From the IMG/VR virus record IMGVR_UViG_3300029183_000042, positions 1 to 26,145 of that record: 26,145 bases of DNA; one strand, written 5' to 3'. This stretch comes from a virus. Taxonomy: Duplodnaviria; Caudoviricetes. The notes beneath the pieces were generated by a model, which was not told where the DNA came from, ran no database searches, and worked only from the letters and a program-made list of their open reading frames with translations. Numbering within the stretch: the first letter of the stretch is position 1; each line of letters starts with the position of its first letter. Shown piece after piece: positions 9,451 to 26,145 of the stretch. Both the position numbers and the translations under genes were made by a program.

Positions 9451-9468
9451 TAAAATACACTCTTTACA
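9449..9468. promoter_or_regulatory. Operator-like palindrome TGTAAAA-N6-CTTTACA
   Basis: One mismatch to the arms at 25101 and 26108. Confidence 0.5.
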
Positions 9469-9508
9469 AAGAAAGCCGCCCCCCAATTAAGAGAACCGGC
9501 TTCCTTCT
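9468..9508 (-). terminator. Intrinsic terminator-like hairpin
   Basis: GGAAGCCG...CGGCUUUC stem followed by UUUGU. Confidence 0.5.
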
Positions 9509-15045: not shown

Positions 15046-15074
15046 ACTTTTGATAATCCTAAATTATCGAAACC
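15046..15074. repeat. 11-7-11 palindromic site A
   Basis: acttttgataa-tcctaaa-ttatcgaaacc. Confidence 0.8.
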
Positions 15075-15311: not shown

Positions 15312-15340
15312 ACTTTCGATAACGCTATTGTGGCGTAAGT
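15312..15340. repeat. 11-7-11 site B (right arm degenerate)
   Basis: actttcgataa-cgctatt-gtggcgtaagt. Confidence 0.75.
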
Positions 15341-15591
15341 TATTCTTCTATCATACTAATTGATGCTAAAAAGAAAGACTCTTCATCTCCGCGCTTCTCG
15401 TATCGGATTAAAGGAATGTCAGCATCAGACCAACCCCACTCAGTCATAATAAATGGTTTTCCATCGCCTATTGGACTAAGCCCATCCATGTCAGTTGATG
15501 TGCCAAACACCTTTGATGTATCGTGCAATCTGGAATAGATTTCTCGATATAGAATCTGATCTATTCTTCTCCATTTTACATGCGATTCCAT
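15340..15591 (-). CDS. Hypothetical cassette protein
   Basis: 83 aa between sites B and C. Confidence 0.65.
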   Translation of the reverse strand: MESHVKWRRIDQILYREIYSRLHDTSKVFGTSTDMDGLSPIGDGKPFIMTEWGWSDADIPLIRYEKRGDEESFFLASISMIEE

Positions 15592-15611: not shown

Positions 15612-15640
15612 ACTTTCCAAATCGCTATTTTATCGAAAGT
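15612..15640. repeat. 11-7-11 site C (left arm degenerate)
   Basis: actttccaaat-cgctatt-ttatcgaaagt; same spacer as site B. Confidence 0.75.
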
Positions 15641-16601: not shown

Positions 16602-16612
16602 TTTTACATTTT

Positions 16613-16641
16613 ACTTTCGATAAGACAGACTTATCAAAACC
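16613..16641. repeat. 11-7-11 palindromic site D
   Basis: actttcgataa-gacagac-ttatcaaaacc. Confidence 0.8.
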
Positions 16642-16653
16642 TAATTATCTTGC

Positions 16654-21590: not shown

Positions 21591-21684
21591 GTCGTTTCTT
21601 AAGTGTAAACTGTTGGGATTAGAGTTAGCTTGATTGTCTAGTTTTTATTTTACTGTAAAGTGAATACTTGTTCCCAGTGAGGCT

Positions 21685-22254
21685 TTAGAATGGAAGGTCG
21701 TCGTCTTCAGAGTCGGTGCTGGCTACACTCTCCGATAGCATTGAGAGCTCGGCAAGCTGCTTTTTCGATGCTCTTCGAACAGACTTCAGTGTCGGATACA
21801 AATTGCCGGGAGCGATGAAGTACACAAATCCGTCGTGAATGAATACCGCCGGTTCATTTGGTGGAGATGTCCCTTCAGCGATTGCTTTCCCGGTTTTTTC
21901 TGCAAGCCATCGATATAGTCCAGGCTCGCGGCTCTCGTTTGTGTCTTCGAGCCACGCAGCAAGCATACGCTGAGATGCTCTGTCGACAGCATGGGGAGAT
22001 AGGTCGACCTGCGGAATCTCCAGTGATCCGCGTTGCTCTAGCTGACGCGTCGCTAGATGTACAATCTGGGGCTTATCGCTTACAGTGTTCATTACCCATC
22101 GCAGGTAGTCAGCCGGAACTTCAGCCATTCGTTTCCCAGAGTGCTTTTTCCCGAAGTTGAATATGATGTCGTCGGTGTTCTTGCCGGCGTATTTCCCGGT
22201 GGCGTACTGAACTTCGCCGGTTTCTTTGTCGAATAGTTCGTTTTGATCCTTCAT
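21685..22254 (-). CDS. DUF3820-like domain protein with an SSB-type acidic tail
   Basis: FNFGKKHSGKRMAEVPADYLRW motif; the protein ends in DSEDDDLPF. Confidence 0.7.
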   Translation of the reverse strand: MKDQNELFDKETGEVQYATGKYAGKNTDDIIFNFGKKHSGKRMAEVPADYLRWVMNTVSDKPQIVHLATRQLEQRGSLEIPQVDLSPHAVDRASQRMLAAWLEDTNESREPGLYRWLAEKTGKAIAEGTSPPNEPAVFIHDGFVYFIAPGNLYPTLKSVRRASKKQLAELSMLSESVASTDSEDDDLPF

Positions 22255-22258
22255 GTCG

Positions 22259-22663
22259 TTATTCGAATGTTTCAGTTATTGATTTTAGAGCGTCATTGAG
22301 TGGCTCTTCATAAAGTCCGTGGAGCGTCTCGGTTATTTGATATTTGATTGGATCGTTCTTCCGCTTCGTTGCTCGGTAATAATCGGCGCTCCAGTAACCG
22401 CCGAGCTCGTCTTCATTCCCATATTCAATATTTTGAATTGAGATGAAGTGGCCAAGAAACGGAAAGTGAATGACGTTGTCGATATAGTCGTGGGCATCGG
22501 AGAACTCGAAGTCGAGAATAAGCTCTCTCTCTTCTTCTGGGGTCATTAGGCCTGAGAGCGTCTTGAAAAATAGATCTCCCAAATCGAGAGAATCCAGGTA
22601 GTCGAGTTCAGCAATAAACCTCAGTAAGTATTTAGCAAGTAAAAGCCTAATTCGCTTTTTCAT
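22259..22663 (-). CDS. Hypothetical protein
   Basis: 134-aa ORF with an AAACGAC leader motif. Confidence 0.65.
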   Translation of the reverse strand: MKKRIRLLLAKYLLRFIAELDYLDSLDLGDLFFKTLSGLMTPEEERELILDFEFSDAHDYIDNVIHFPFLGHFISIQNIEYGNEDELGGYWSADYYRATKRKNDPIKYQITETLHGLYEEPLNDALKSITETFE

Positions 22664-22680
22664 GAGTCGTTTCTAATTTT

Positions 22681-22711
22681 GTTTTCGATAAGGCATAGAA
22701 TTATCGAAACC
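22681..22711. repeat. Palindromic site E (same arms as A-D, 9-nt spacer)
   Basis: gttttcgataa-ggcatagaa-ttatcgaaacc. Confidence 0.7.
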
Positions 22712-22738
22712 GATTAATTCTATGAAAACGGTTTCAGG

Positions 22739-22966
22739 CTAACTATACATTTGAATGCATTCCTTCATCTCGCTAACAAAGTCCTCAACTGTGATAGTTC
22801 CGCCGTATATGTCAATCACGTCAATGATACCATCGGCATCAACATCCGAGTAACTAACGCCAAATCTGCGAATACACTCTGCATTCACCTTATCACTTAA
22901 TTCCTTGTGTTTTTCGGCTGCTTTAGATGCTTGATCTAAGAGCTTTTGAAATCGTGAGTTTGTCAT
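22739..22966 (-). CDS. Hypothetical cassette protein (75 aa)
   Basis: Unit 1 of the AGAAACCGCCCC array. Confidence 0.7.
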   Translation of the reverse strand: MTNSRFQKLLDQASKAAEKHKELSDKVNAECIRRFGVSYSDVDADGIIDVIDIYGGTITVEDFVSEMKECIQMYS

Positions 22967-22991
22967 TTATTTATCTGGTAAGGGGCGGTTT

Positions 22992-23210
22992 CTAGTCTTC
23001 AGGATTGCATTTGTCATATATCTTCTGACACATCTTGTCATAGGCTTTGTGAATCGCCTTAATTTTCCTTTCAGAAAGATTATCAATATTACCTTCGATT
23101 AAGTCCGAAAGGTACACGCGACCCCGCCCAGCATCTAGCATACACCATGCAACGTAATACACGAACTGCGTAGGTGTGAGGTCACTAATATCTTTTTCAA
23201 GAAGAGTCAT
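22992..23210 (-). CDS. Hypothetical cassette protein (72 aa)
   Basis: Unit 2 of the array. Confidence 0.7.
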   Translation of the reverse strand: MTLLEKDISDLTPTQFVYYVAWCMLDAGRGRVYLSDLIEGNIDNLSERKIKAIHKAYDKMCQKIYDKCNPED

Positions 23211-23248
23211 TTGATTGTTTTGTGTATTTATTGATAGGGGGCGGTTTC

Positions 23249-23485
23249 TCAGAATTTTATCGATTCCTCAGAAAGTAGCCCTTCTGTATATTCAGGCTGA
23301 TACTTTTCGTGGTTTGGAAGTTTCTGTTCAAGCTCATGTATCCAGTCGGAAATCATGGTTTTGACATAATCCCGCTGTGTCCAGTCTCCGTCAAAACCTT
23401 TCTCTGTACGTATTTGTAGTTCCCTAAGGAATGCTAGGTCCTTTCCGGCTTGATCTTCTGTATAGGTAGTTTCTTTGTATTTCAT
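23249..23485 (-). CDS. Hypothetical cassette protein (78 aa)
   Basis: Unit 3 of the array. Confidence 0.7.
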   Translation of the reverse strand: MKYKETTYTEDQAGKDLAFLRELQIRTEKGFDGDWTQRDYVKTMISDWIHELEQKLPNHEKYQPEYTEGLLSEESIKF

Positions 23486-23510
23486 TTTATCTCTGTTGTT
23501 GGGGCGGTTT

Positions 23511-23729
23511 CTAGTCTTTATTGATCACGTCACGGTGCCAATATCGACTATTGGGCATTACTCCATCTAAAGCTAATTGCACGTCGTAAAGCGCTTGCCG
23601 ATAACCGCCGGCATACCCTTCTGAAGCTAGGCCACGGGCAAACATGGAATTAGGTTTTGCGTTGCTTGCAATATCTTTATTTACTTCATCAAGTACCTTT
23701 TTGAGATCGCGTCTTATTCCTTTAGCCAT
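23511..23729 (-). CDS. Hypothetical cassette protein (72 aa)
   Basis: Unit 4 of the array. Start placed at MAKGIRR, downstream of the repeat; contains LASEGYAGGY. Confidence 0.7.
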   Translation of the reverse strand: MAKGIRRDLKKVLDEVNKDIASNAKPNSMFARGLASEGYAGGYRQALYDVQLALDGVMPNSRYWHRDVINKD

Positions 23730-23773
23730 TGCAATTTGTGTTTTTATTTTCCAGCACAACCGGGGGCGGTTTC

Positions 23774-23863
23774 TTACAAGGAGAGCCACAGTGCATACAG
23801 AACGTAACCGAGCACATAGCCAGCAGCAATGGGAGTAAGTCTATCAGATTTTCCCTTTGTCAT
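23774..23863 (-). CDS. Possible 29-aa membrane peptide
   Basis: MTKGKSDRLTPIAAGYVLGYVLYALWLSL; its TAA overlaps the 12-bp repeat as in the other units. Confidence 0.45.
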   Translation of the reverse strand: MTKGKSDRLTPIAAGYVLGYVLYALWLSL

Positions 23864-23978
23864 TTTTGATGCTATCGGCATGGTACATTGAGGCTCCTGT
23901 CTTTATTGTAATCATTGCAGTGGGGACATTTGGTTTTTTCTTTTTTCATCGTTAAATCCTGTTCTGGTTTTTACCATA

Positions 23979-24077
23979 TCAGCCAAGCGCTATAGCAATG
24001 ATCGTAACTACCACAACGATAATGATCAGAATACCCGCAACTATCCTCGCCTTTGCGCGATCCTCTTTATAGCTCAT
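23979..24077 (-). CDS. 32-aa membrane peptide
   Basis: MSYKEDRAKARIVAGILIIIVVVVTIIAIALG. Confidence 0.6.
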   Translation of the reverse strand: MSYKEDRAKARIVAGILIIIVVVVTIIAIALG

Positions 24078-24078
24078 A

Positions 24079-24183
24079 TTAGATACCCGAAATTATCCAG
24101 GCAGCAAACCAAAGTATAAAGCTGAGAATTCCTGCAATGATAACTCGAAGTCTGAGGTCTTGCGGCTCGGCTGATTTTGTCAT
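24079..24183 (-). CDS. 34-aa membrane peptide
   Basis: MTKSAEPQDLRLRVIIAGILSFILWFAAWIISGI; ATGA overlap with the upstream gene. Confidence 0.6.
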   Translation of the reverse strand: MTKSAEPQDLRLRVIIAGILSFILWFAAWIISGI

Positions 24184-24659
24184 CTGAGTTTTCTCTCGAC
24201 TGGTTGGTTGATCGGTGTTGTGAAGATTGAGATCGTAGTTCCGGTGTAAGAGGTGAACGTGAAAGGCTCATCGGTTACGGTAAATGTATAGTTCTCGATC
24301 TTCTGTTTGTTTGTCTCATCGAAAACGCCAACCGTAAAACCTACAAATTTCTTAACACGCTCAGGAGAAGAGAAAAGGCCGATTACCTGGAAGTTGCCTC
24401 GCTCATCGGACTCAACGACGACGAGCATCGAATGAACGGTCTCCTTGTTGCTCGTAACTTCTTCAATCAAGAGCCGGTTTGACAGTTCATTGCGAAGTTC
24501 TTCTTTCGAGAAGGTCGCGAGCGTTCTTGATCTCGCTTCCTCAGTGAACTTGTTAATCTTCTCCGGATCTATTTCGAGTGACGGCTGACGCTGTGGCTCT
24601 TCGATTCCCATTGCCTTTAGCGCTTCACGTTCTTCTTCGATACTGCGTTCCTGGTTCAT
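24180..24659 (-). CDS. Hypothetical protein
   Basis: 159-aa ORF containing VIGLFSSPE. Confidence 0.65.
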   Translation of the reverse strand: MNQERSIEEEREALKAMGIEEPQRQPSLEIDPEKINKFTEEARSRTLATFSKEELRNELSNRLLIEEVTSNKETVHSMLVVVESDERGNFQVIGLFSSPERVKKFVGFTVGVFDETNKQKIENYTFTVTDEPFTFTSYTGTTISIFTTPINQPVERKLR

Positions 24660-24675
24660 TTGACCTCAGTATTAA

Positions 24676-25047
24676 TTAAGCCTGTATATCTATCTTGCGG
24701 CCGATCGTATTTTCGGTAACATAGATTCCGTAAAGATCGAGAGTCTTTACGTTATTTGCAGGATAATCAATTGGATCGAATTTATCAGGATCTCCTAGTG
24801 CATGTTCAATGCGATCAATAAGGTCATGCTCGTGTTTCGTTTGCAGTTGCAGAAGACCATAATTGCCGACGTCGTCAAACTGTGCGACTACGAATTCAAG
24901 ACCATTAAAACGTACTCGTTGCGCTCTGCCGTTATGGAAGCGGTAAATGTTGCCTATCTCGAATTTACTCTCGTCGTTGTTTTTTGGTACTATTTCGACT
25001 TCGACGAGTACGTATTCTGCAAAAAGAGAGATGAGGAATTTAATCAT
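24676..25047 (-). CDS. Hypothetical protein
   Basis: 123-aa ORF downstream of an operator/promoter module. Confidence 0.65.
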   Translation of the reverse strand: MIKFLISLFAEYVLVEVEIVPKNNDESKFEIGNIYRFHNGRAQRVRFNGLEFVVAQFDDVGNYGLLQLQTKHEHDLIDRIEHALGDPDKFDPIDYPANNVKTLDLYGIYVTENTIGRKIDIQA

Positions 25048-25100
25048 TGTTCTGTCGTCGTGTTTTGTTTGTGTGAACTCTATAGTGTACGCTTCACTGA

Positions 25101-25120
25101 TGTAAAGTTTCGGCTTTACA
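25101..25120. promoter_or_regulatory. Operator-like palindrome TGTAAAG-N6-CTTTACA
   Basis: tgtaaag-tttcgg-ctttaca, intergenic. Confidence 0.7.
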
Positions 25121-25134
25121 CAAATTATGCCGCG

Positions 25135-25782
25135 TTATCTTAGCCAAAGTAGGCGAAAATCGTCCTTCACCTCATAGAATATTGAGCTCTTTGATGCTAC
25201 AATTCGGCCTGATCGGTATTCATATGCGATCGACCTTATAAGATGATTGCCGGCTGCGTCGTAATAATCTAGGTTGTCAGCTTCGACCCAGCCTTGTCTC
25301 CACTGTGGCGGAAACTCATAGACCTGGATTGAGCCGGCGAGAAGATCGGTTGATTGCTCGGCTTCGGACGGTGTCAACAGGCGGCGCATATTCCTGTGAT
25401 AGAACGCGTGCTTGAATCCGCTTATGTCCATGGCTTGACCGAGATACAGCTTTTCACGACGGCTCGCTACGACGTCGTAATATGGGAGACTTTCCCAATC
25501 TATTCCAGCATCCGGTGTAAGAAACGAGACTATCTTAGGATATGGACAATTAACTTTAACGAGACCCGCATCGATGAGCCGTTGCATGTGATATTGTTCT
25601 TGCGGATAAAGTTCTAACCATATGACTGGAGCATAAGCACGCTGATTAAATAGTTGAATTCCTGCAAGCAAGTTCTTCGCCGTGAGAGGGATCTTGAACC
25701 TGCTGCGCGTCTCCTGGTCGAGATGAACCCCGACGCGTTCGCGGACGGTCTTTGGTCGTTTAAAAGATTTAGTTTTTGTCAT
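25135..25782 (-). CDS. Hypothetical protein
   Basis: 215 aa from MTKTKS, preceded by AAAAACGACAA. Confidence 0.7.
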   Translation of the reverse strand: MTKTKSFKRPKTVRERVGVHLDQETRSRFKIPLTAKNLLAGIQLFNQRAYAPVIWLELYPQEQYHMQRLIDAGLVKVNCPYPKIVSFLTPDAGIDWESLPYYDVVASRREKLYLGQAMDISGFKHAFYHRNMRRLLTPSEAEQSTDLLAGSIQVYEFPPQWRQGWVEADNLDYYDAAGNHLIRSIAYEYRSGRIVASKSSIFYEVKDDFRLLWLR

Positions 25783-25846
25783 TTGTCGTTTTTGTTTGTG
25801 GTTAACCAATTAATCGGCAACGTACCGACATTCTTAAATCTCGCGA

Positions 25847-26035
25847 TTAGAAACTTACTGAATCGAAGTCTTCGAGTGACTTGTTGTCGAAAAGTTCGGC
25901 GAGTGGATCTGTGATTTCGATCGCTTTGTCGAGTGCTGTGTGCGCTTCTTCGAGAAACGCTTCTTGATCGGCGTAATATTCCTCGACAGAGATTCGGGCA
26001 AACGGCTCTAGGTCCTGCAATAGTAGATTTTTCAT
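25847..26035 (-). CDS. Small acidic hypothetical protein
   Basis: 62 aa, downstream of an operator/promoter module. Confidence 0.6.
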   Translation of the reverse strand: MKNLLLQDLEPFARISVEEYYADQEAFLEEAHTALDKAIEITDPLAELFDNKSLEDFDSVSF

Positions 26036-26107
26036 CGTGTCGTTTTTCTAAGTGTGTGAACGAGCGGCATTATCTGATCCGCTTTCTATAATATAAGACG
26101 CCGCTAA

Positions 26108-26127
26108 TGTAAAGTTTCAACTTTACA
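26108..26127. promoter_or_regulatory. Operator-like palindrome TGTAAAG-N6-CTTTACA
   Basis: tgtaaag-tttcaa-ctttaca, intergenic. Confidence 0.7.
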
Positions 26128-26145
26128 TAAAATATTAATAATGAG

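Follow-up and report, generated by a model that had tools for sequence, protein, structure and literature searches.

The closest described parallels to the array analyzed here come from T4-like phages. In RB49 and phi1, repeated intergenic elements named PeSLs bound ORFans in a plastic region of the genome; they carry terminator-type G/C runs, and their shuffling was proposed to occur without a dedicated recombinase (accessible parts of PMC2839356 and PMC4122927). In the same partial texts, a PeSL includes a complete stem-loop along with a sigma-70 promoter, and indels and mini-circles have been demonstrated. Linker or boundary modules are short shared sequences at gene ends across which unrelated genes are exchanged (PMC2839356 and PMC3029335, as far as their accessible parts go), and a 29-bp repeat flanks an accessory block in one such description (PMC3029335, same limit). 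Integron arrays and the CALINs of phages are made of promoterless one-gene units in one orientation, with a site at the stop codon, and integrase may be absent from the element (PMC9892861, partial text). Finally, the SAS and stoperators of mycobacteriophages are asymmetric, oriented intergenic repeats of about 13 bp that lie beside unrelated genes; SAS are genome-wide and start-associated, and stoperators are repressor sites (PMC3203893, partial text). Here, we analyzed a 12-bp repeat, AGAAACCGCCCC. A fragment of a tailed phage has four exact copies of it on its minus strand, and every copy overlaps a stop codon. We give a probability of about one half to the reading that the repeat forms an array of reused phage linkers or boundary sequences, akin to the PeSLs of T4 but shorter and lacking a promoter.

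The window, i.e., the whole stretch of 26,145 nucleotides that was analyzed, is an entire record of a linear virus sequence, with an estimated completeness of about 33%. It comes from an uncultured aquatic phage. The fragment was found in a pair of metagenome runs of aquatic origin from a single study, which may be its source, and no RNA run was listed as carrying it. Its genes, all on the minus strand, specify the terminase subunits, portal, capsid, neck, tape-measure, amidase, and DNA methyltransferase, and it is therefore a fragment of a tailed phage. The tape-measure gene shows up as two ORFs (1222-2169 and 212-1123, break at 1124-1222) that both match tape-measure PHROGs; the break may be a frameshift or an assembly error. 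No tRNA or tmRNA was found. The repeat array lies upstream of the packaging genes, surrounded by small genes that are non-structural (Table 1). Some bacteria, Bacteroidota for example, use SD pairing little. Since an SD-like word was found in only 3 of the 38 genes of the window and the leaders are rich in A, the data suggest a host of this kind.

Other elements were noted around the array. The gene at 21685-22254 encodes a protein of 189 aa, whose exonuclease X C-terminal-like match is weak (E 0.02) and which has an acidic tail ending in LPF that we take to resemble SSB tails; its product is possibly a recombination or replication accessory. A leader word, TTA(A)GAAA(AA)CGAC, recurs 0-3 nt ahead of the start codon at 26035, 22663, and 21590, and is loosely similar to the first half of the 12-mer. 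Near the window end, an operator-like palindrome occurs in two intergenic copies that are 84% alike (25097-25128 and 26104-26135). Just beyond this end, a contig of run X2 has an inverted 20-bp copy of 26028-26047, a hint of a divergent gene. The X2 assembly continues for 2.7 kb beyond the window, and the X1 contig measures 35.7 kb.

Table 1. Features of the window, by position (J1 to J4, junctions with an exact copy of the 12-mer).
Feature	Position	Strand	Description
Terminator-like hairpin	9465..9507	-	upstream of the head genes; outside the array
Palindromic site	15048-15072		TTTCGATAA-N7/9-TTATCGAAA; at a gene boundary
Palindromic site	15314-15338		TTTCGATAA-N7/9-TTATCGAAA; at a gene boundary
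Palindromic site	15614-15638		TTTCGATAA-N7/9-TTATCGAAA; at a gene boundary
Palindromic site	16615-16639		TTTCGATAA-N7/9-TTATCGAAA; at a gene boundary
Palindromic site	22683-22709	.	perfect TTTCGATAA-N9-TTATCGAAA; at a gene boundary; closes the 12-mer array
Degenerate copy, GAAACCG	22729..22735	-	3 nt past the stop of A
A	22739-22966	-	75 aa; PHROG 37511, function not assigned
J4, type II	22982..22993	-	overlaps the TAG of B; 15-nt leader
B	22992-23210	-	72 aa; homolog search returned only B itself
J3, type I	23238..23249	-	overlaps the TGA of C; 27-nt leader to B
C	23249-23485	-	78 aa; remote family, core of about 45 aa
J2, type II	23501..23512	-	overlaps the TAG of D; 15-nt leader to C
D	23511-23729	-	72 aa from ATG; widespread small phage family, no assigned function
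J1, type I	23763..23774	-	overlaps the TAA of the 35-aa ORF; 33-nt leader to D
35-aa ORF (predicted gene)	23774-23881	-	upstream of the array; hydrophobic C-terminal half

The repeat is the sole 12-mer that occurs four times in the window, and none of 200 order-4 Markov simulations had any 12-mer occurring four times. No further copy with up to two mismatches was found in the window. An earlier, sequence-only reading had described the four copies as the ends of a fixed-period series of small genes. Recomputing the positions gave the same result, with start-to-start distances of 256, 263, and 262 bp between exact copies and of 257 bp to the degenerate GAAACCG. The coordinates also agree with its description of ORFs of 72-78 aa whose stops are overlapped by the repeats, of a degenerate copy just past the last stop, and of 18 bp common to two copies, namely J2 and J4. 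Its view that each unit lies between repeats holds for D, C, and B, which alone have exact copies on both sides, but not for A, which ends at the degenerate copy. The overlap of J1 with the stop codon of the 35-aa ORF had been missed. GAAACCG would lie past the end of A by chance with a probability of about 1e-3, and this copy is the left arm of a hairpin that extends into the palindromic site at 22683-22709.

In 4/4 copies, the 12-mer starts inside the stop codon, while the distance to the next ATG is variable (33, 15, 27, and 15 nt). Hence, it is anchored on the upstream stop and not on the next start.

To what extent are the genes between the repeats related? We found no protein similarity among A to D, either in pairwise or in profile-profile comparisons (B was profile-compared with D only), and this applies both to the claim that the array is not a tandem gene duplication, which stands, and to the check for diverged paralogs, which revealed no relatedness. 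In fact, each of D, C, and A comes from a different family, unrelated to the other two, and all three families have homologs elsewhere. For D, there are 20 homologs with 45-65% identity, which start at the same Met as the 72-aa D, and the family is also present in 16 records of Stenotrophomonas phages, of which the two that were fetched are both Menderavirus. C has 21 remote matches, and most of these homologs miss its tail of ~23 aa. The homologs of A are in locus L001 and, via P0023, in Pseudanabaena phage Pam5. B has a weak PADLOC match to Csn2 (E 0.005). Searches for a function of A to D gave no useful match in Pfam, NCBIfam, or PADLOC, no Atlas lead, and no PDB relative. No family match was found for the 35-aa ORF; it is comprised in a stretch directly upstream of the array (23774-24183) with three ORFs of 32-35 aa that all have a hydrophobic segment.

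The junctions are of two types that alternate along the array, in the order I (J1), II (J2), I (J3), and II (J4), with a period near 519 bp. J2 and J4 are identical over 18 bp, a stretch that takes in the final codons of both D and B, and they also agree in AGATAAA and in a leader of 15 nt. Between J1 and J3, 13 bp are identical and a leader word is alike at 13/14 nt (score 24; a score of 22 is reached by 4% of 190 other leader pairs). This alternation points to a putative reuse of junction pieces. It could also go back to a single ancient duplication of a block of two genes, in which the coding parts were later replaced and the 12-mers are now inert scars, with nothing moving any longer. The order of the types, their period, and the lack of variant contigs fit such scars. 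Yet, no DNA similarity between units is left outside the junctions (local scores 16-23), whereas the 12-mer is perfect in four copies, which disfavors neutral decay and makes this scenario very improbable.

The putative linker may derive from a terminator. Intrinsic terminators begin with an A-tract and a G/C arm, and the 12-mer looks like this 5' arm. Elsewhere in the window, the hairpin at 9465-9507 folds at z -4.0, and the 12-mer is complementary to its 3' arm plus U-tract, apart from one extra base; such a match with one indel was obtained in 2/200 simulations, and the match is post hoc. The partner arm is retained by J1 and by the degenerate copy, J1 being the only exact copy that has it (5-bp stem, CCCC loop). 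No terminator was called at the repeats. Judging from these likenesses, the linker probably derives from the left arm of an ancient terminator. The 12-mer was also considered as a broken arm of the palindromic sites of Table 1 and this was ruled out, as the inner five bases mismatch.

These elements allow us to propose how the array may have formed. The ancestral junction would have been a stop codon followed by a terminator hairpin. Recombination at the arm would have fused it to the leader of a new gene, and in that joining the terminator would have been lost and the new gene co-transcribed. Both junction types would then have been multiplied, either by duplication or by renewed import from related phages, and would have come to enclose different coding sequences, resulting in units made of leader, ORF, stop, and linker. 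Recombination over short homologies likely served to copy and swap the gene units, and the exchange could have relied on the general single-strand annealing of phage or host, or on slippage, with no dedicated enzyme. There are precedents for PeSL and linker shuffling (PMC2839356 and, for PeSL, also PMC4122927, in their accessible parts) and for boundary sequences (PMC3029335, likewise). The linker reading is supported because the 12-mer is fixed at 4/4 stops while the leader length varies, because the junctions alternate and D, C, and A come from unrelated families, and because 2/16 loci with D homologs are bounded by repeats (see below), together with the hairpin match and the partner arms.

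Relative to PeSLs, the array has elements of 12-18 bp with at most half a hairpin and no promoter, and mobility is known for PeSLs alone. As in linker modules, a short shared sequence lies at the boundaries of unrelated genes; compared with linker and boundary modules, it is shorter, comes in four tandem copies, is mostly non-coding, follows the stop, and delimits units of near-constant length. Some observations count against the linker reading. Minimal efficient pairing takes 23-27 bp for Red-beta and 31-34 bp for RecA (PMC3945230, partial text), so that the 12-18 bp of homology available here are below the minimum of both and exchange would be rare. The even spacing is not explained, ERF and RecT are absent from the fragment, and no relative was found. 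Furthermore, four perfect copies beside unrelated flanks could equally mean selection on a binding site.

This last point leads to a different explanation, in which the 12-mer is a functional signal under selection, either a putative protein- or RNA-binding site at the stop (for translation re-initiation, RNA processing, or a stoperator-like role) or a decoy whose single strand pairs with the 3' arm of the terminator before the head genes. The four copies are all exact, on the same strand, and fixed to the stop, they are largely unpaired in 2/4 junction folds, and they are complementary to the hairpin at 9465-9507. The scarcity of SD-like words (3/38 genes) makes other initiation signals plausible, and asymmetric phage repeats of 13 bp are known in the form of SAS and stoperators (PMC3203893, accessible part). 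However, all copies of the repeat fall within 0.8 kb and none is found at the window's other gene junctions, whereas the SAS of cluster K number 11-19 per genome and adjoin starts (same partial source); the array has four clustered copies at stops. There is no second box at a fixed spacing, no Rfam match (0), and no excess of promoters (5 promoter-like sites found for 7.4 expected, and 1/4 repeat copies overlapping a sigma-70-like match of 9/12). A signal would also leave unexplained the coding ends common to D and B. We regard it as possible but unlikely.

Coming back to the linker reading, the even spacing is a feature that it does not account for. We compared the spacing with a null of 29 units (mean 263, sd 72), taken from two accessory regions of Menderavirus. 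The mean unit size is ordinary, and the tightness alone is odd: three units within 7 bp have p of about 0.004 and four within 10 bp have p 6e-4, in a null that is small and of a single phage genus, for a post hoc feature picked from a very large scan. Because of the size of the null and of this choice, a size rule for the units is a hint only.

Even spacing is what one would see if the 12-mer were the core of an attachment site, at which a recombinase encoded outside the fragment stacks circular one-gene cassettes of ~260 bp. The geometry of core, gene, and core, with the stop inside the core, fits this, as do the p-values above, although they suffer from the small, single-genus null and the post hoc choice. 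C is ~23 residues longer than its family core, 12 bp suit a crossover core better than homologous pairing, and one pair in the palindromic site family of this phage is like attL/attR (see below). Searches for integrase, resolvase, RT, ERF, and RecT returned none in the fragment, in agreement with the sequence-only reading, which had noted no recombinase in the window; as the fragment is about 33% complete and two thirds of the genome are missing, this absence is weak as evidence. But no dyad or hairpin is common to all integrated copies, none is attC-like, and the computed excision junctions fold no better than shuffles (z -1.9 to +1.6). The core is present in 0/18 homolog loci, no second array was found in viral contigs (0; 0/51) or at 116 metagenome loci (13/64 parts), and the alternation of junction types is not predicted. 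Such an attachment core is in our view decidedly unlikely.

Two classical systems can be set aside, as had been proposed from the sequence alone. CRISPR repeats have roughly 23-50 bp and are separated by short non-coding spacers. Here, a 12-bp repeat leaves 244-251 bp between copies, each interval has an ORF, and no cas family was found in Pfam among 40 ORFs of the fragment (33% complete). The array is not a canonical integron either, since the junctions have neither R''/R' boxes nor a common fold: unlike integrons and CALINs, it has no RYYYAAC/GTTRRRY boxes and no attC hairpin, and its repeat is a direct, asymmetric one of 12 bp. The integron integrase (PF00589) is absent from the window record, again at 33% completeness.

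To search for relatives of the array, we looked for its pattern in other sequences. In viral contigs, the two-copy repeat pattern was found 0 times, and a 14-mer scan gave 51 loci, of which 0/51 are arrays after stop codons. In metagenomes (13 of 64 parts), a relaxed two-copy pattern gave 116 loci, the flanks of 80 being examined, and none had two post-stop copies. No close relative was found via the neighbor gene at 21685-22254 or the capsid protein, the latter having matches at most 37% identical, and blastn of 21600-26145 against phages gave no match. We also looked for contigs skipping a unit or joined at any repeat, and found none among the contigs of three runs of one study, a weak survey since assembled contigs drop rare variants. 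A piece of X2 (23096-24726) has higher depth, which was set aside as a repeat-linked signal because its ends are not at the repeats; its loose ends are presumably library adapter. A literature search, thin in subscription papers and without supplements, gave no description of the motif or array. The idea of gene capture or shuffling put forward in the sequence-only reading keeps part of its support: the units give the impression of having been put together from a common stock of small phage genes, and their spacing is tighter than expected, but no gain, loss, reordering, or circles were seen in the contigs of that one study.

If the 12-mer traveled with the genes, one would expect it around their homologs. 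We found it, allowing up to two mismatches, at the gene flanks of 0/18 homolog loci (16 of D, one of A, and Pam5), after removal of the duplicates L177 and L186; these loci are distant (35-65% identical) and in unrelated phages. This is the outcome that the sequence-only reading had itself named as refuting capture. In 2/16 loci, L180 and L181, the D homolog lies between two copies of another, locus-specific repeat, and the flanking repeats of each beat all 1000 null windows. L180 (948-2532) has six 33-nt G-rich junction repeats with an SD word and a stop/start overlap; they separate unrelated small genes, including the D homolog, and several copies encode a common C-terminal peptide. In L181, the D homolog is flanked by a diverged repeat of about 48 bp. 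A third D locus with a flanking repeat, L183, is marginal (p 0.038). Because the homolog loci lack the 12-mer while L180 and L181 have other repeats, the 12-mer is tied to the phage locus and not to the genes. And since these two D loci are bounded by different repeats, the D family has entered repeat-bounded units more than once.

In two other D loci, L182 (410-780) and L176 (2630-3310), attC-like TAAC...GTT junctions were seen by eye after several small genes. The folds at the D gene of L176 and L182 are not significant (z -0.23 and 0.33), and PF00589 is absent from both records, one of which (G004) is rated complete.

The phage has a second family of sites, which are palindromic and border a methyltransferase and genes of 76-83 aa (Table 1). 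Three of the five are within 2 mismatches, which was reached in 0/200 simulations. Two of the five sites bracket the 83-aa gene at 15340-15591, with an identical spacer of 7 nt and perfect sequence in the outer arms only (chance of about 6e-4); by its layout, this pair is like the attL and attR left by the insertion of a tyrosine recombinase substrate into one perfect site. The stretch 16607-16643 is present in an unrelated contig of run X3, in an unlike context. Exact sites were found at 13 viral loci, some of them A+T-rich and possibly due to chance. In an unrelated phage (L195, 360-384), the site comes directly after a stop, with the 7-nt spacer of 15048-15072. In the provirus G007, one site lies right after a methyltransferase gene (L205, 79-1166) and another, with 2 mismatches, about 280 bp past a tyrosine-recombinase gene (L206, 4517-5896), with ThsB-like TIR genes near both. 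No such site was found in 401 genomes of one phylum. This family is a better lead for a dedicated system than the 12-mer. Its site at 22683-22709 closes the array, and a link between the two families would be hypothetical.

A dedicated system would combine both families: a recombinase encoded off the fragment would stack size-selected cassettes of ~260 bp at the 12-bp core fused to the stop, and lox-like palindromic sites would capture genes via 7-bp overlaps, the 83-aa gene being a fresh insertion. If true, this would be an analogue of integrons without the attC hairpin. We hold it to be improbable, and shuffling of modules by linkers, a known kind of mechanism, explains the anatomy of the locus more simply than dedicated capture. 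The array would most probably be a novel form of the linker shuffling known from phages.

The origin of the many small accessory genes of phages is only partly understood. The present evidence provides a single well-defined example, of putative mobility, of how they may be added. A junction made of half a terminator would place a new gene after a stop codon and at the same time open read-through to it. Should the uniform size of the units and the palindromes turn out to reflect a recombinase system, they would reveal a new mechanism of cassette capture and be a pointer to a pool of accessory genes.
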